A DNA stretch of 64,000 nt from Escherichia phage OES_C-1, in sequence record PQ553088; one strand, 5' to 3'. The notes beneath the pieces are model-generated. The model was not told where the DNA came from. It searched no databases and worked only from the letters and a program-made list of their open reading frames with translations. Positions 5,145-57,349 of the stretch are shown here, one piece after another (positions within the stretch are counted from its first letter, which is position 1; each line of letters begins with the position of its first letter). Made by a program: the position numbers and the translations under genes.

Positions 5145-7322
5145 TTAGGCCGCAAGGGCCTTCATAGTTTTAGCGATTTGGGAAACTTCATCATCACTTA
5201 AAGAGTTGCGATAACCGATGAAGTCGGAAACAATACGGAATTTCTTGGTAAACTCAGCAACCATTTTATCACTGTTTTTTGAAGCATTATTTGATAATAC
5301 ATCAAAAAGATTAGTTACTGTCCAGATGTCATGACCGATGGTATCTTTTCCACCGTTGAAATATACACCCTGTAATGAACTAACCATATTAGCGAGTCGT
5401 GTATATTCTTCAGAAACTTCATCTACACTGAAGTACTTCATCATAAAATCTAGTTCAGGATACTTGATAATTTTATCAATATATCGTTTAGCTGAACTTG
5501 AATAACCTACATACTTATCATAATCTACATCATCAAAAGCATCTACATATAAATCACGCAAAGTTTCAAAAATACATTGGCACTGACCAAGTTCTTTTAC
5601 CTTTTTCTGCAAAAGCGGACGAATAACATAAAATTCATTAATGCCAATAAGATTAGCCATACGAATCAAAATATTCGTAGATGGATGACAAAGCGATGTA
5701 GTACCATCCATAGAGAAAATATCAGAACGATGCATGTATGCTACATAACCAGTAATTTCATCTGCTTCTGACGTAAGTGTAAATAGTTCCTCTTTTTCCC
5801 AGCGACCGTCTTTAATTTCAAACTTAAATGCAGTAGCAGTTTTAGGACGAGGAGCTGTACTTTTTACTGCCTTCGGAATATAACTTTTAACTAAAGCTTC
5901 AATTTCTGACAGATAATGAATGTTAACTTCATCACTTTCAAACATTGCGATAATATCAGGAAGCAAATCAATCTGCGATTCTACTTCCGGATTAATAAAC
6001 AGAAGACGCTCATTGTGATGAATATTCAAAGTGTTATTAAATTCACTATCATCTAATGCACGTGCTAATCCACGGACAATATTAACACGATTTTTAATAT
6101 TATCAATGACGATATTAATTTTTGTTGTGTTAATACCAAACAGACGATAACTTGATGCAACGGCTGAAGTTTCATGACTTTGCTTAATGCGCTTCAGTCG
6201 AGGGTCAAGATTTACTTCATACACAACTCCTGCATTGCATAACTTACTATCAGGTTCAAACATGCTTTGCATCTTCTTATATGACAGATTTTTAGTCGTA
6301 AATTTGACTGAATTACTAATCATATAATCTCGAGCAGAATACCCCATCTTCATCAATTCACGATATGTATGACGGGGAGATGTGGATTCTTTAAATCGTT
6401 TTACATCTTCATTAAATGCTTTCTCACTGAGTTCTTTAACTCGTTCAATAATATTTTTACGAGTACGATCATCCAGTGAAAGAGCCTCGCGAGATGGAGC
6501 AATATCAAGTGAACCCATTGGAAACTTAATATAATTCACTTCATTGCGGATGCTTAACCAGTTACGGTCTCTAATAACACCATCAATAGGATAAACAATA
6601 CCACCATAGATAGCATACAATCCACCACGATCTGGCCAGTATCTTTCTGGATTTACGCCGTAATAATCATCAAAATCCGGAAAATAATCAATTTCGCGGT
6701 CAAGACCATTAATAATAGCCAAATCTTTGAATGGTCGCATGATATAGGAAACTTCATAAGCAAAGTTTCTAAAGTCTTTTTCTTCAACCGGAACTACGAT
6801 TTCAATGCCAGTTTTATCGTTTGGACCCATTTCTTTTACGAATGTAGGTTTAATCTGCGGACCGTCACCATCCATGTAAGCTACATAACCACGAATTTCA
6901 CCTTTATGGTACGAAGTAATACTAAATGTATCAGTATAACTAAACGGAGATTTAGAACCTAAACCAAATCCGCCAATGAAATCGTTGGATTCAGCCTTAG
7001 ATGAACTGAAGTATGAATTATATAACCCAGGAGAATTATCATCACCCTGAATATCAAAATCGCTCATACCCGGACCAAAATCTCGACAAACAAATCGCGG
7101 ATCTAATCGTCCTGGAACTTGAATGATAAATTTTTCAGGATTTCCATTGAGAGCATGGGCGTCAATCATGTTGGTAATTAATTCACGGACTACTGCACGA
7201 ATCTTGTTTGTATACAAATCAGATGACAGAATTTTAAATACTTTAGGAGATGCTGTGATGCTAAATGCTTTTGATTTAGAACCATTGCCAAGAATTGTTT
7301 CTTTTTCAGTGGTGATAATCAT
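5145..7322 (-). CDS. rIIA: rIIA protein (725 aa)
   Basis: [29 protein letters not shown]...; size and rIIB adjacency as T4. Confidence 0.9.
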
Positions 7323-7559: not shown

Positions 7560-7593
7560 TAATTATACCACATCCTTGTGGTAAAGTAAACTA
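7560..7593 (-). promoter_or_regulatory. T4-type early promoter (GTTTAC, 18 nt, TATAAT)
   Basis: gtaaac 7586-7591, attata 7562-7567; same 30-nt sequence recurs at 54343-54372. Confidence 0.65.
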
Positions 7594-51225: not shown

Positions 51226-51441
51226 TTACCCCAATTTAACCATACAATCGCCGTATTTCCACTTAGAAATAGACTTTTCACCATTAGAATAATAAACTTC
51301 GAGTTTAGCACGATTATTTTTAATTTGAATAACCTTGGCTGTCATCAAAGTTCCATACCCATAATAAACTGCAACTTCATCACCTACATATACCGCGCTT
51401 CCGCGGTAATCATGAATATAGTCAGTTCCTTCGAGCATCAT
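51226..51441 (-). CDS. hypothetical protein (71 aa)
   Basis: Track ORF overlapping nrdC stop. Confidence 0.45.
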   Translation of the reverse strand: MMLEGTDYIHDYRGSAVYVGDEVAVYYGYGTLMTAKVIQIKNNRAKLEVYYSNGEKSISKWKYGDCMVKLG

Positions 51442-51947: not shown

Positions 51948-52337
51948 TTAATCCAAAATATTATTAGGCATTGGTTGAACACTCACAAGTTCTTTAAAGA
52001 ACTCAGTAGAGTCAGGCAATTTAACCATTTCCGGAGCATGCTTACTGAATTTATGTTTACATTGACGGCATTTATATTCAAGCTCTGGTTTACGCCAGTT
52101 AATCAATTGAACTTGTTCAGTACCGCATTCAGGGCAATTAGGAACGTTTTTAGAAGCTCTTTCACGTCGTTCAACCATAGCCATAATAGCATCCCATGCT
52201 GGAGGTTTAAAATCTAAATCGTCGCAGCCGTGAATCTTTCCACGCATTTCCATATCATCTTCCTCACCAGCCATAATAATTTTAATTAAACTGGAATTAC
52301 TTGAAGCTGCAATGTCTTCTAATAAACGCTTTTTCAT
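51948..52337 (-). CDS. zinc-ribbon protein (129 aa; CPECG...CRQC)
   Basis: Track ORF. Confidence 0.45.
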
Positions 52338-53260
52338 TTCAATACCTCAATAGCATTACGTAAACCATTTGCTTTGGCGGTTAAAGCCTTAAGAACTTTA
52401 GTATGCTCTTCAATCTGTTTTTCAACTTCAATCAAACGGGCACTGAGATATTCGCGTTCTTCTTTCATAGTATCATTTCCATGATTGGATTTTGGTGTAG
52501 GTTTAAATTCGCTAGGGTCCTTTAATTTAATAACAAATTTAGTTTCAAACAGCGAAAGACCATAATTCGTATTATCATCAAAGGATTTGACTACATCCAT
52601 ATCAGATAATAACACGCGTAAATTATAAGCCAAAGAACTAATAGTTTCATTGTGTTTATTAGCTTCGCGTGGTTTCATATACGGAAGATTTTTATATATC
52701 TCGTGCGGAGCGCAAACGATAATTGACAATTCAAATTGTCCATTCTGGGACGATGGAGTGAATTTAGCCGTAACCCAGTCTTTTACATTCACATTAATAG
52801 TACGGTTATCACCATGACAAAACAGTCTACGAGAATGCTTAAAAAGCATATTCACGTTATTATTGAATTCGTGTGAAAATTCACTAGCAAATTTTTCTTT
52901 ACTATCTTTAGAAAACCATTCTTCTAAATAAGTTCTTTTCACGTCGTTAATAATATTAAATGTAACAACACTAGCATTTGATACATTAGTCTCAATGTAG
53001 CTTGGATACATAAATTTTTTAACATTATTAACAGCTATCACAGAAGATAGTAATCGGGAACGTTTGAACCACTCGAGCAAAGAACCAAGAGAATGTGAAT
53101 ACGCATTTTGTGTATCTTTACAAATATGGTTTTCCCATCCAATATAGTCTAAAAAATCACGAAGAATATTATTGATTACTGCTCTGTGTCCTATCTGATA
53201 ATTACGATGTTTAGTAATAAGACTGTCAAAATAATCAATATAATGTTTACGAGTTTTCAT
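52334..53260 (-). CDS. paralog family member 1 (308 aa), coiled-coil C-terminus
   Basis: MKTRKHYIDYF... N-terminus; C-terminal heptad region ...[21 protein letters not shown]. Confidence 0.55.
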   Translation of the reverse strand: MKTRKHYIDYFDSLITKHRNYQIGHRAVINNILRDFLDYIGWENHICKDTQNAYSHSLGSLLEWFKRSRLLSSVIAVNNVKKFMYPSYIETNVSNASVVTFNIINDVKRTYLEEWFSKDSKEKFASEFSHEFNNNVNMLFKHSRRLFCHGDNRTINVNVKDWVTAKFTPSSQNGQFELSIIVCAPHEIYKNLPYMKPREANKHNETISSLAYNLRVLLSDMDVVKSFDDNTNYGLSLFETKFVIKLKDPSEFKPTPKSNHGNDTMKEEREYLSARLIEVEKQIEEHTKVLKALTAKANGLRNAIEVLK

Positions 53261-53312
53261 GTTCTTCTCACTTGGTTAATGATTTATACTCCGAGCCATC
53301 CTTGGCTTTAAA

Positions 53313-54314
53313 TTACTTAATTAACTGTAAAGCTTGTTCAAGACGATCCAGGCGATTAACAGATTCTTCCCAAATCCTTTTAGCCTGCTCATATTCTTTC
53401 TGTGCTTTATTAGAAATTTCTAGAACTTCTTTATAAGCTTTTTCTAGTGCAATAACTTCTGGACGAATTTCTACCGGTTCAAGTGAATCATCAAGACATT
53501 CCATTAGTTCCTCAAGGGTAGTTTCTTCTTTAGGAGTATTCACAATTTCATCACATTTTTGTTGGTAAATTTCTTTATCAGTCGGTGAGTACGCGCACTT
53601 TACTTCACGGAGACTAACTACAATTTTATATCCTTCCCAACCGCACATATTCTTAAAAGGATAAGTATGAATATTTTCTACCGTTTCCATACAAAGTAAT
53701 GCAGTCTCTAATTGACGAGTTATATCACTAGCAATTGAGAAAAATTTATTAATGTTCTTTTGATTAGCTTCTGGTGTAAAAAATCCATAATTCACAAAAA
53801 TAGCTGCTTTATTTTTATCAAGTTCATATTCTTTTATGATAATCATGTCAGAAGCCCAAGGATGAATTTGACGATAATCACCATAGCATAATTTAGAAGC
53901 TGATTTTAGAATTTGCTTTTTGAAAAGTCTGAAATTACTAATCCAACGACGAGTAAAAATATTCTCAGGGTCTTCTTTATTATTAAGATGATAAGAATTA
54001 ACATCACCGAACCAATTATATCCTACTACATCTTTGGTTCGTTTAATTTCTTTCCCAAAATTACCAAGAATATCCTGATTAACTAAATATGAAAGAAGAC
54101 GAGAACCTTTAAAGGTTTCCTTAATATCACCTTTATCTTCGCGACTAGAAATTTTATGAACTTCATGAATAAATTTGCTGGAAGAAACAATGCTTACATC
54201 AATATTATTGAGCCATTGATTGATAATGGAAATAACATTATTCTGACTAGACATAGGTTTAACTTTATCATCAATAACGCTATTAAATGATTTGATATAT
54301 TCGTTACGAGTCAT
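53313..54314 (-). CDS. paralog family member 2 (~333 aa from internal ATG), coiled-coil C-terminus
   Basis: MTRNEYIKSF... with GAGGAG SD; own early promoter upstream. Confidence 0.55.
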   Translation of the reverse strand: MTRNEYIKSFNSVIDDKVKPMSSQNNVISIINQWLNNIDVSIVSSSKFIHEVHKISSREDKGDIKETFKGSRLLSYLVNQDILGNFGKEIKRTKDVVGYNWFGDVNSYHLNNKEDPENIFTRRWISNFRLFKKQILKSASKLCYGDYRQIHPWASDMIIIKEYELDKNKAAIFVNYGFFTPEANQKNINKFFSIASDITRQLETALLCMETVENIHTYPFKNMCGWEGYKIVVSLREVKCAYSPTDKEIYQQKCDEIVNTPKEETTLEELMECLDDSLEPVEIRPEVIALEKAYKEVLEISNKAQKEYEQAKRIWEESVNRLDRLEQALQLIK

Positions 54315-54342
54315 ATTAATCTCCTCAGTAGAAAGTAAGAAC

Positions 54343-54372
54343 ATTATACCACATCCTTGTGGTAAAGTAAAC
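54343..54372 (-). promoter_or_regulatory. T4-type early promoter (30-nt identical to 7562-7591 copy)
   Basis: gtaaac 54367-54372, attata 54343-54348. Confidence 0.6.
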
Positions 54373-55397
54373 TAGTTCAGTGCATTTAGTGCATTGTTCA
54401 GTTTAGAACGTTGCTTCGTGAGATTTTTGACTTTTTCTTGAGCTTTTTCTAGCATCTTTTCAGCTTCTAGCACTTCATTAGTTGCTTTAACGAGTTCATC
54501 ATCTACTGCTTTAAGAGACTTCTCAATCGCATCTGCATGCCATTTTTCAACAGGTTTAAGACTCGGATTTTCAATAGGAAGAAAATTCACTTTATTGAAT
54601 TTCCATGCATCTTTATTACCTGAACTATACATCCAAAATTTAGGATCGTTTGATGAGTAATTGGATAAATTTAAGTTATCTTGCACTTCCTGCTTTTTCT
54701 CTTGTGTGACTTCGTCCTTTCTCAAAAAATCGTATTTAAATGAAACGATCATATCAAGTTCATATGTTGTTGTATGTTCCCAATTTCGCTCAAAATGAGG
54801 TAAAATCTTAGACTGAACAGCAGCAACAACATCCATATACTTAAATGCTTCTGTCAGCTGTGATTTAAGACATTCACAAATTGAAAGAGAATTTTTAGTA
54901 TTAGGCTTAAAGCTAATTCGTGCAGTTCTATTATTTTCTTTTAACGGTCTTACTTCCATCTGAAGAGTATAACCATCAAATTTCAGGTTCTTTAAGTTAA
55001 TATCAGAGCCTTTTAATCGACTAGCAGTAGACAAAATTTGCTTTAATTGTTTACGGAATAGAGCAATAAATCTCCATTCAATACGATAATGATTTGGATT
55101 GAAAAATCCAGATGATAAATCGACCTTACTTTGACCAACGCCTTGAACAAATAGAGGATTTTTATAATCAATAGTTTTACAGAAATCGGTGAGCTGCTCA
55201 CGAGCCGTCATTTGTGTAATATACCCTGCTTTACTAAAATTACACACCCATTCACTACTGCTATTCTTATACTTAAAGTGATGAATAGCATGATTAACTT
55301 TATCAGGGTCTAAATTATTTTCACACAAAAATGTCATAACATCACGAGTATAGCTGGCTCTACGAACTATATCTTCAATTTGAGAACGAGTTTTCAT
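54372..55397 (-). CDS. paralog family member 3 (341 aa), coiled-coil C-terminus
   Basis: MKTRSQIEDIV...; ...KVKNLTKQRSKLNNALNALN. Confidence 0.55.
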   Translation of the reverse strand: MKTRSQIEDIVRRASYTRDVMTFLCENNLDPDKVNHAIHHFKYKNSSSEWVCNFSKAGYITQMTAREQLTDFCKTIDYKNPLFVQGVGQSKVDLSSGFFNPNHYRIEWRFIALFRKQLKQILSTASRLKGSDINLKNLKFDGYTLQMEVRPLKENNRTARISFKPNTKNSLSICECLKSQLTEAFKYMDVVAAVQSKILPHFERNWEHTTTYELDMIVSFKYDFLRKDEVTQEKKQEVQDNLNLSNYSSNDPKFWMYSSGNKDAWKFNKVNFLPIENPSLKPVEKWHADAIEKSLKAVDDELVKATNEVLEAEKMLEKAQEKVKNLTKQRSKLNNALNALN

Positions 55398-55405
55398 GGT
55401 ATTCC

Positions 55406-56293
55406 TTAAGATTTAAGTAAATCAACAATTTTAATTAACTTTTCACGCTCAGATTTAGCTTTACTACTCAATCCAGATAGTCTGAAAATTTCATCGTCAT
55501 ACTGTTGAATAGAAATATTCAGCTCTTCAATCTGCTTATTAAAATAATCAATTTGTTCAGAATGTTTTTCGTTACTACGAACTGGCACAGGTTTCGTAGG
55601 CAATGTAGTTGAACTTGATTCATCCGGGCGATAAATTAAAATACAACTTGAACCGATAGGGCATTTTGCACCAGATGAATATTCTAATGTTCCAGCTTCT
55701 TTTAAAATTTCAAAAGCTAAACAGAGATGATGCCCCATATTGACATAATCTGTAGAGCGAGCTCTGATGTAATAATCATCTCCGCGAATACTAAATTTAA
55801 AGCATTTAAGGTCTTCTGTATTATTGGTCTTAAAAATCATTTGTTTATCTAGACCTTTAGCTAATCTAGCGCCTAATGCTAATAATCGTCGTTGATTTTC
55901 CCACAAATCCGCAATCATTTGATCGAATGATAATTTCGGCATTAGTCGACCGTAAAGGTCATATCCTTTATTATAATTACGAAGGATTTCACTCGCGTTA
56001 ATACGAGACAATGCTCCAATTTTATTAAGGGCTTTCATAATACGATTAGATAAATCCATTCCAGACTCGTGTGTTCGCTGCAAATGTTTTTCTAATCCAA
56101 ATCCAATATCAACTTTAAACTTATCTAAAATTTCGGCATGAACATCTTTGTCAATAACATTTAAATTTAATGCTAGGTTAAATCTATGAAAAAATTTATC
56201 TGGCTCTCCACGACGAAGTACAGTCCATTCATTCAATTTTTTATTAACTAAAGATTTAATTACTGTATTGACATTATTAATTACTACTGACAT
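55406..56293 (-). CDS. paralog family member 4 (~295 aa from internal ATG), coiled-coil C-terminus
   Basis: MSVVINNVNTVIKS... with GAGGAAAA SD. Confidence 0.5.
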   Translation of the reverse strand: MSVVINNVNTVIKSLVNKKLNEWTVLRRGEPDKFFHRFNLALNLNVIDKDVHAEILDKFKVDIGFGLEKHLQRTHESGMDLSNRIMKALNKIGALSRINASEILRNYNKGYDLYGRLMPKLSFDQMIADLWENQRRLLALGARLAKGLDKQMIFKTNNTEDLKCFKFSIRGDDYYIRARSTDYVNMGHHLCLAFEILKEAGTLEYSSGAKCPIGSSCILIYRPDESSSTTLPTKPVPVRSNEKHSEQIDYFNKQIEELNISIQQYDDEIFRLSGLSSKAKSEREKLIKIVDLLKS

Positions 56294-56300
56294 ATTTTCC

Positions 56301-56708
56301 TCACTCAATTTCAATTTTACTAAATACACAGAATATGATTGAACAGACTACATAAGCGCCACACACAGATTGAACTAATACCATCCCAAAGAACCAAACA
56401 ATATTATCAAACAGTGTCTGTTTTACGTCGAAAGGACGTAAACTTACAGTAATATTATCACCTTTTTCTATTGAAGAATACATCTCTGGGGAAATATATT
56501 CACTAAATCTATAACCGTCTTTAAGTTCATATACGGCAATAAACGATAAATTAGACCCTTTTCCTTGAGTTCCTGTAATAGTATTAACTACAGTAACATC
56601 ATAATCTTTATAGTGCATATAATCATTAATTGCGTAATAACCGTATGCAACTACTACACATAAACAACATATCAATAAATTCAATCTTTTAATTATCAAC
56701 CGTTTCAT
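56301..56708 (-). CDS. membrane protein (135 aa; N- and C-terminal TM segments)
   Basis: Track ORF. Confidence 0.45.
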   Translation of the reverse strand: MKRLIIKRLNLLICCLCVVVAYGYYAINDYMHYKDYDVTVVNTITGTQGKGSNLSFIAVYELKDGYRFSEYISPEMYSSIEKGDNITVSLRPFDVKQTLFDNIVWFFGMVLVQSVCGAYVVCSIIFCVFSKIEIE

Positions 56709-57319: not shown

Positions 57320-57349
57320 ATAGTACCACAGAGGAACAGTCTTGTAAAC
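57320..57349 (-). promoter_or_regulatory. T4-type early promoter (cassette near-identical to 2749-2808)
   Basis: gtaaac 57344-57349, atagta 57320-57325. Confidence 0.6.

Follow-up and report, generated by a model that had tools for sequence, protein, structure and literature searches.

The window analysed here is a stretch of 64 000 nucleotides from Escherichia phage OES_C-1 (sequence record PQ553088), a Tequatrovirus, and the subject of this report is a tandem array of four consecutive open reading frames (ORFs) on its minus strand. These are the T4 genes nrdC.3, nrdC.4, nrdC.5 and nrdC.6, because the 4-kb stretch that contains them gives a 100% DNA match to another Tequatrovirus, Escherichia phage OES_C-3, and the genes are annotated under these names in relatives. 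The same stretch is 90–96% identical to several hundred Tequatrovirus genomes, the gene order nrdC-.1-.2-.3-.4-.5-.6-.7-.8 is that of T4 and the four proteins are 91–94% identical to their T4 counterparts. They are located in the block gene 49–pin–nrdC–nrdC.1 ... nrdC.11–mobD. Comparison of sequences, profiles and predicted structures points to all four being remote paralogs, one of which, nrdC.5, is published as an anti-Dsr1 gene. The genes and the paralog letters used below are as follows (AB denotes the merged nrdC.3/nrdC.4 profile).

52334..53260, minus strand: nrdC.3, paralog A; 308 amino acids (aa), 93% identical to T4 nrdC.3, phrog_1435 with E 1e-100
53313..54314, minus strand: nrdC.4, paralog B; 333 aa, 91% identical to T4 nrdC.4, phrog_1435 with E 1e-166; AlphaFold2 (AF2) model with a predicted local distance difference test (pLDDT) score of 84
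54372..55397, minus strand: nrdC.5, paralog C, the published anti-Dsr1 gene; 341 aa, 93% identical to T4 nrdC.5, Pfam DUF7235 with E 8e-125
55406..56293, minus strand: nrdC.6, paralog D, the most diverged; 295 aa, phrog_2257 with E 5e-150; AF2 model with pLDDT 78 and a predicted structural link to the nrdC.4 family

The original prediction, made from the sequence alone, had given the four ORFs these coordinates and had chosen the shorter start codons, and both are borne out by the ORF positions and the Shine–Dalgarno sites. The nrdC.4 start at 54314 is preceded by GAGGAG, with the rival ATG at 54344 falling within the −10 box of a promoter, and the nrdC.6 start at 56293 is preceded by GAGG. 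Existing classifications keep the four apart. The gathering threshold of PF23882 (DUF7235) is 30 bits, which nrdC.5 passes with 416.8 bits and nrdC.3 misses (12.1 bits, E 0.13), while nrdC.4 and nrdC.6 give no match. Newer Pfam releases hold separate families, PF26897 and PF26899, for the paralogs of nrdC.5, making three separate Pfam families in all, and PHROGs groups nrdC.3 and nrdC.4 only (PHROG 1435). Apart from DUF7235 of nrdC.5 (function unknown), none of the four has a significant match in Pfam, NCBIfam, PADLOC or PDB sequences. In GenBank, many homologs of nrdC.3–nrdC.8 are named ‘thioredoxin’ and some ‘Mur ligase domain-containing protein’, domains that Pfam does not detect in them; Pfam likewise gives no thioredoxin or glutaredoxin match in any of nrdC.3–nrdC.6. 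The ‘thioredoxin’ label appears to have been propagated from the neighbouring gene nrdC.

The four ORFs had been proposed to be diverged paralogs, and all-against-all alignment and profile comparison (BLASTP, hhalign and permuted nulls) support their similarity. By sequence, nrdC.3 and nrdC.4 are unambiguous homologs, with a BLASTP E value of 5e-4 directly and 1e-8 via a Dhakavirus ortholog, an hhalign value of 98% and PHROG 1435 in common. The null for the other pairs was obtained from 60 column-permuted profiles per pair, computed on reduced alignments. nrdC.5 aligns colinearly with the AB profile (hhalign 85–87%; score 50 versus a null of 14.8 ± 2.5, reached by 0 of 60 permutations; z = 14). 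The comparison of nrdC.5 with nrdC.6 gives a score of 28.6 versus 14.8 ± 2.4, again with 0 of 60 permutations as high (z = 5.8), at an HH probability of 7.6%; that of the AB profile with nrdC.6 is borderline, with a score of 23.2 versus a null maximum of 22.8 in 60 permutations (z = 3.0) and an HH probability of 1.7%. Pairwise identity between the paralogs is 12–25%.

The three profile alignments (AB–C, C–D and AB–D) are mutually consistent, and two motifs fall in identical columns. Motif 1 is K-x-G-x-[LI]-[ST]...A...L..F-x-K (the SRLLS.../AGYIT.../IGALS... segments) and motif 2 is A-x-[RK]-L...G-x-D (SKLCYGD/SRLKGSD/ARLAKGLD). Locally alignable segments in an otherwise divergent central domain had been noted from the sequence, and both of the motifs picked out at that time land in the same columns of the profile alignments. 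The motif 2 segments are located as follows.

52808..52834, minus strand: SRRLFCHGD, nrdC.3 aa 143–151, within the A–B homology alignment; its equivalence with SKLCYGD of nrdC.4 is the assignment of the original prediction
53877..53897, minus strand: SKLCYGD, nrdC.4 aa 140–146, at the predicted helix–turn junction H132–142/H145–148
55002..55022, minus strand: SRLKGSD, nrdC.5 aa 126–132, the most invariant stretch of the nrdC.5 family
55847..55870, minus strand: ARLAKGLD, nrdC.6 aa 142–149, at the predicted helix–turn junction H134–144/H147–150, in the block N133–N157 that is invariant in the family

The 180 ORFs of the window served as an internal control: the best non-self match of the AB profile is nrdC.5 and that of the nrdC.5 profile is nrdC.3, and the nrdC.6 profile found no other ORF among the 180. 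An exhaustive search of 1.84 billion representatives with the nrdC.5-family profile returned 13 matches, all T4-like or fragments, with no members of A, B or D; HMMER-level searches therefore cannot link the families, which only profile–profile and structure comparisons can do. nrdC.8, suspected of being a fifth member from its C-terminal helix, has no profile support and was rejected. We infer, as a modest new step, that nrdC.3–nrdC.6 form one superfamily, a conclusion in which our confidence is greatest for A and B, still good for C and reasonable for D. No description of the four as one family was found in the literature searched. The genes and one phenotype, that of nrdC.5, were known; what is added, modestly, is the kinship of three uncharacterised T4 genes to the anti-Dsr1 gene as its remote paralogs.

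AF2 models of nrdC.4 (pLDDT 84, predicted TM-score 0.69) and nrdC.6 (pLDDT 78, predicted TM-score 0.66) were compared with BFVD using Foldseek. Both models are predicted to contain a core in the order helix, helix, short helix, β-hairpin, helix, β-hairpin at nearly the same residue numbers, followed by a low-confidence linker and then by a long C-terminal helix, and motif 2 occupies the same helix–turn junction in the two models. The nrdC.4 model matches nrdC.3 of fPS-65 (E 2e-8) and nrdC.6 of JS10 (E 2.4e-5, probability 1.0), and eight of the 12 significant BFVD targets of the nrdC.6 model are also significant for the nrdC.4 model. One of the targets common to both is gp080 of Klebsiella phage Mineola, encoded directly upstream of an nrdC.2-like gene, which also matches the nrdC.5 profile with 94% HH probability over almost its whole length; nrdC.5 is therefore tied to both of the modelled families. 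It is mainly through predicted structure that nrdC.6 is linked to the other three.

A C-terminal heptad-repeat helix had been claimed for all four proteins and is supported in each: the hydrophobic periodicity of the tail at positions a and d exceeds that of shuffled sequences (p 0.0000–0.0095), and AF2 predicts the helices in nrdC.4 and nrdC.6. The corresponding segments are given below.

52337..52462, minus strand: heptad helix of nrdC.3, aa 267–308; periodicity p = 0.003 versus shuffles
53319..53462, minus strand: long helix of nrdC.4, aa 285–332; predicted by AF2 as a single helix H285–332, heptad p = 0.0025
54375..54500, minus strand: heptad helix of nrdC.5, aa 300–341; 0 of 2000 shuffles as periodic
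55412..55570, minus strand: C-terminal helices of nrdC.6, aa 242–294; predicted by AF2 as H242–271 and H277–294, heptad p = 0.0095

The helix was also considered as a common sequence module, which was rejected: hidden Markov models of the last 48 residues gave no significant cross-family match among the 180 window ORFs, the best (C to A, in register) having an E value of 0.2. The C-terminal helix is therefore a shared architecture for which sequence homology is not demonstrable. In the T4 reference (locus L003, NC_000866, about 5740–5800, corresponding to about 55500 of the window), nrdC.6 carries a one-nucleotide deletion (GAGCTGAATATT to GAGCTGATATT) that puts the final ~37 residues out of frame, so that the C-terminal helix is lost. 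Since the other frame still encodes the helix intact, the frameshift is a recent laboratory-strain mutation or a sequencing error. A metagenomic protein, P0230, in which an unrelated N-domain of 120 aa precedes the C-terminal helix of nrdC.5, was rejected as a case of modular exchange; it is most likely to be a metagenome assembly chimera, because the N-domain is found in 0 of 50 697 phage records. Two further proteins, P0235 and P0236, are also spurious.

The claim that the N-termini are similar holds for nrdC.3, nrdC.4 and nrdC.5, which have a family motif in common, T-R-x-x-[YL]-I..F, found in the Mosigvirus and Dhakavirus orthologs too; it fails for nrdC.6, which lacks the motif. The N-termini had further been likened to the reference capsid-targeting sequence (CTS) of the T4 internal proteins, MKTYQEFIAE, with which they share 1–4 of 10 residues and have MKT alone in common, a beginning found in six ORFs of the window. 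The prohead-protease motif [LI]-x-E is absent from residues 8–10 of nrdC.3–nrdC.6 and of their orthologs, and the N-terminus of nrdC.4 is modelled as an integral helix of the predicted fold (pLDDT 93). The proteins of the array are 33–40 kDa, above the size of the T4 internal proteins, which are smaller.

The window contains 17 matches to the T4 early-promoter pattern GTTTAC-N15-TGnTAnnnT, where 0.05 would be expected, and all of them are on the minus (coding) strand. One member of the array had been credited with its own early promoter, and the conserved pattern identifies this member as nrdC.4. Two matches concern the array.

54343..54372, minus strand: T4 early promoter with a spacer hairpin (PeSL-type cassette) serving nrdC.4 and nrdC.3, GTTTACTTTACCACAAGGATGTGGTATAAT; GTTTAC-N15-TGgTATAAT, between nrdC.5 and nrdC.4, kept in T4, RB6, L001 and L002
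57320..57349, minus strand: predicted early promoter before nrdC.8; pattern match, with no other early-promoter match between it and nrdC.5

By its position, the second promoter would drive an nrdC.8-.7-.6-.5 transcription unit. The hairpin in the spacer of the first is TACCACAAGGATGTGGTA. Each of the two has a 30/30-identical partner elsewhere in the window, about 47–55 kb away: 54343–54372 with 7562–7591 and 57320–57349 with 2777–2806, all on the minus strand. These paired identical promoters look like PeSL promoter/terminator cassettes, which have been proposed as mediators of gene shuffling in T4-type hyperplastic regions (PMC4122927, PMC2839356). The late-promoter core TATAAATA was found on neither strand between 20160 and 63796. 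MotA-box-like sites (pattern TGCTTnA-N10-14-TAnnnT) are absent from the coding strand of the nrdC.3–nrdC.10 block; in the whole window this middle-promoter pattern occurs 23 times versus 7.7 expected. At the level of promoter consensus, expression of nrdC.3–nrdC.6 would be early, not late, and nrdC.5 was termed an early gene by Srikant et al. (PMC9391042).

The original description of the array as tandem and rapidly diverging agrees with comparisons between genera, in which nrdC.3–nrdC.6 are 23–55% identical versus 69–91% for gp49, NrdC, NrdC.8 and NrdC.10. The pairwise ratio of nonsynonymous to synonymous substitution rates (dN/dS) is 0.10–0.36 for nrdC.3–nrdC.6 versus 0–0.10 for gp49, nrdC, nrdC.8 and nrdC.10, i.e. 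2–10 times higher yet below 1; the genes are therefore constrained and functional but faster-evolving. nrdC.3–nrdC.6 are under purifying selection. Within nrdC.6, conservation is found in the motif region and in the C-terminal helix, and variation in the N-terminus and the β-sheet half. nrdC.3 occurs in Tequatrovirus as two allele classes (about 93–100% and about 60% identity) that form a mosaic: residues 1–75 are 86–100% identical, residues 75–280 are 23–56% identical and the C-terminus is 80% identical, so that the two classes differ by a swapped central domain. Alleles of the RB6 type are closer to Mosigvirus (76%) than to those of the T4 type, a pattern suggestive of the exchange of a domain between genera.

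Copy number was compared across the T-even genera, as had been proposed, using loci drawn from an annotated phage collection. There are four copies in Tequatrovirus, three each in Mosigvirus and Dhakavirus, with different membership, and a single confirmed copy, in the same position, in Klebsiella Jiaodavirus. A search for related loci with nrdC.3 in viral contigs returned two loci only. Natural rearrangements of the array are found among public genomes: P0119, on a 167-kb contig, has nrdC.5 (aa 147–273) fused to nrdC.3 (aa 134–308) with nrdC.4 deleted; in P0234 the N-terminus of nrdC.5 is joined in frame to the final 13 aa of nrdC.4; and P0121 carries an internal tandem duplication of 83 aa in nrdC.6 of Shigella phage Sf25. 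In the Acinetobacter phage Abraxas (Lazarusvirus; L008, 9603–10693), orf120 encodes a protein of 343 aa at the syntenic site upstream of a glutaredoxin gene. The protein ends in a helix with significant heptad periodicity (p 0.005), and the gene has a T4-type early promoter of its own. At the sequence level nothing links the protein to the families of nrdC.3–nrdC.6; it probably corresponds to the Acinetobacter representative that the fold searches returned.

The functional context comes from nrdC.5. A T4 clone deleted in this region does not plate on ECOR17 or on MG1655 with dsr1, and plasmid-borne nrdC.5 restores plating (PMC9391042; Srikant, Guegler & Laub, 2022); packaging is therefore unnecessary for nrdC.5 action. 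Dsr1 is a SIR2 NADase with a tetratricopeptide-repeat (TPR) sensor that is reported to recognise major capsid proteins (PMC12803255). Elsewhere in the same hyperplastic early block, between gene 49 and mobD, Gp49.2 inhibits OLD (PMC13096335) and NrdC.1 inhibits Septu (HIDEN-SEQ preprint). The role in host interaction or anti-defence that had been suggested for the array is supported by these findings. Gp49.2 and NrdC.1 resemble nrdC.3–nrdC.6 in being small or medium ORFs without known domains, and each disables one defence system, but they are single genes of unrelated sequence and size and form no paralog array. The genes nrdC.1–6 can be deleted en bloc in the laboratory (PMC9825161).

On balance, we favour an account in which the four genes are paralogs of one ancestor that act as early cytoplasmic counter-defence inhibitors, each with a host target of its own. 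A single ancestral gene would have lain just upstream of nrdC/nrdC.2, as in distant Straboviridae (single-copy in Klebsiella Jiaodavirus), and in the T-even genera duplication would have turned it into a tandem set of three or four copies. The protein is envisaged as an N-terminal helical bundle, an α/β core around a helix–helix–turn motif, a disordered linker and an amphipathic heptad helix of roughly 45 residues. Early transcription would start at T4 early promoters, and the protein would act in the cytoplasm and be dispensable in laboratory hosts. Its most likely job would be counter-defence: each paralog would be a stoichiometric inhibitor that binds and neutralises an immune protein of the host, a different one in each case. 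Specificity would come from variable surfaces of the globular domain, and the conserved core and the predicted C-terminal helix would constitute a common scaffold that probably mediates oligomerisation and hence avidity.

Of the four, nrdC.5 (ORF C) is itself the known anti-Dsr1 protein, and nrdC.3, nrdC.4 and nrdC.6 resemble it in architecture, locus and predicted early expression; they differ in lying below the DUF7235 threshold, at 12–25% identity to nrdC.5, and in having no known target, so that their counter-defence roles are put forward as probable ones. Our best mechanistic guess is that NrdC.5 binds the defence protein directly, by analogy with DSAD1, the inhibitor of DSR2 from SPbeta-type phages, which likewise counters a SIR2-domain NADase defence. 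The two are likened by function alone: DSAD1 targets DSR2, which senses the tail tube, whereas NrdC.5 acts against Dsr1, with its TPR sensor and reported capsid sensing.

Several points weigh against this account. A single member of the four, nrdC.5, has an experimental phenotype (PMC9391042), and whether its mechanism is direct or indirect is unpublished in the literature searched. The dN/dS values lie far below 1, and gene-wide positive selection is therefore absent. The T4 reference nrdC.6, which lacks the helix, may mean that the helix is dispensable or that this copy is dead. The structure models cover nrdC.4 and nrdC.6 only, and the link to nrdC.6 has moderate TM-scores (0.38–0.49) and low HH probabilities (2–8%), though with scores above the empirical null; we think that the moderate TM-scores are due in part to the free placement of the C-terminal helix relative to the globular part. 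Finally, the same helix–helix–turn motif is the most conserved part of every family, which could mean a common partner or activity and not four targets.

This last point leads to the strongest of the alternatives, to which we give a minor but appreciable chance: all of the paralogs would bind the same host or phage component through the helix–helix–turn motif, and the anti-Dsr1 effect of nrdC.5 would be an indirect by-product, for example of hiding a phage trigger (the capsid protein that Dsr1 senses, say) or of remodelling a host process. The motif region is not only the most invariant within each family but also the sole part alignable between families, masking of a trigger is conceivable given the reported sensing of major capsid proteins by the TPR sensor (PMC12803255), and the published work on nrdC.5 consists of genetic rescue only. 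Early-only expression, however, poorly suits the masking of a late structural protein; conservation of a motif predicted to be buried at a helix–turn junction is explained equally well by its being the fold core; and the upkeep of three or four copies at 12–25% identity argues for diversified function.

It is improbable, in our judgement, that nrdC.3, nrdC.4 and nrdC.5 are the sole true paralogs and that nrdC.6 is an unrelated protein convergent in size and C-terminal helix. Such a reading would account for the HH probabilities of 1.7% and 7.6% against AB and C, for the failure of the nrdC.6 profile to find any other window ORF, for the missing N-terminal T-R motif and for the lack of sequence cross-matches among the C-terminal helices. 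The HH scores nevertheless exceed all 60 permuted nulls, and the two motifs are in register with the AB–C alignment. The order and spacing of secondary structure are the same in the predicted models of nrdC.4 and nrdC.6, whose Foldseek results (E 2.4e-5 for the nrdC.4 model against nrdC.6 of JS10; eight of 12 targets in common) point the same way, as do the adjacency of the genes and the single-copy Mineola homolog matched by both models.

We consider it very unlikely that the proteins are enzymes, for example NAD+-restoring or nucleotide-modifying ones, that counter by catalysis the loss of NAD+ caused by Dsr1. Enzymatic pathways of NAD+ reconstitution are among the known ways of countering NADase defences, but no significant match to a known enzyme family was found in Pfam, NCBIfam or PDB sequences. 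Most positions conserved across families carry hydrophobic or structural residues, with one R/K and one D in addition, the paralogs at their 12–25% identity have no catalytic constellation in common, and the family is confined to T4-like phages (for nrdC.5, 13 representatives among 1.84 billion proteins). The suggestion that nrdC.3–nrdC.6 are internal-protein-like effectors, which would be packaged into the phage head, cleaved there by the prohead protease and injected along with the DNA, can practically be set aside: two of the four start with MKT like the T4 internal proteins, which are themselves a diversified anti-defence family of analogous biology (Ip1–3 versus GmrSD variants; PMC12373910), but the proteins have neither a targeting sequence nor a cleavage motif, no late promoter was found within 7 kb upstream, their size and the predicted N-terminal helix of nrdC.4 speak against it, and nrdC.5, described as an early gene, works in trans from a plasmid (PMC9391042).

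Two neighbouring features of the window also differ from T4. nrdC.2 (51948–52337), whose body is a zinc ribbon, has 129 aa versus 104 aa in T4, and its extra C-terminal ~25 aa match phrog_21284 ‘hydrolase’. In Klebsiella phage Mineola a separate ‘hydrolase’ ORF of 50 aa adjoins the nrdC.2-like gene, and the extension may therefore reflect a gene fusion or split. A minus-strand ORF of 71 aa (51226–51441), located between the pin region and nrdC, has a 100% conserved counterpart in RB6 and none in T4, another presence/absence polymorphism of the island.

T4 is the reference phage, and yet three of the four genes are without an assigned function; their kinship to the anti-Dsr1 gene makes them specific and cheaply testable counter-defence candidates, and the conserved scaffold and variable surfaces of the family point to where specificity determinants may lie. 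Through the single-copy relatives in T4-like phages of Klebsiella, and probably of Acinetobacter, the question also concerns therapeutic phages. We offer only tentatively the further proposal that the array is a specificity-diversified panel of inhibitors built on one scaffold (helix–helix–turn core and oligomerising coiled coil) and aimed at different Dsr1/Avs7-type TPR-sensor defences or at other sensors. The analogy is with T4 Ip1/Ip2/Ip3, also a diversified, non-essential T-even set in which each member acts against a different GmrSD variant; those proteins differ in being injected and CTS-bearing, whereas nrdC.3–nrdC.6 have no CTS, protease site or late promoter, lie at other loci, are much larger and have an unrelated fold. 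If the proposal is true, the array would be the cytoplasmic early counterpart of the Ip1–3 panel, and the central-domain swaps of nrdC.3 and the gain and loss of copies would be the trace of an arms race. Should the paralogs target variants of one defence family, they would form a second matched-inhibitor panel after that of Ip1–3 and GmrSD.

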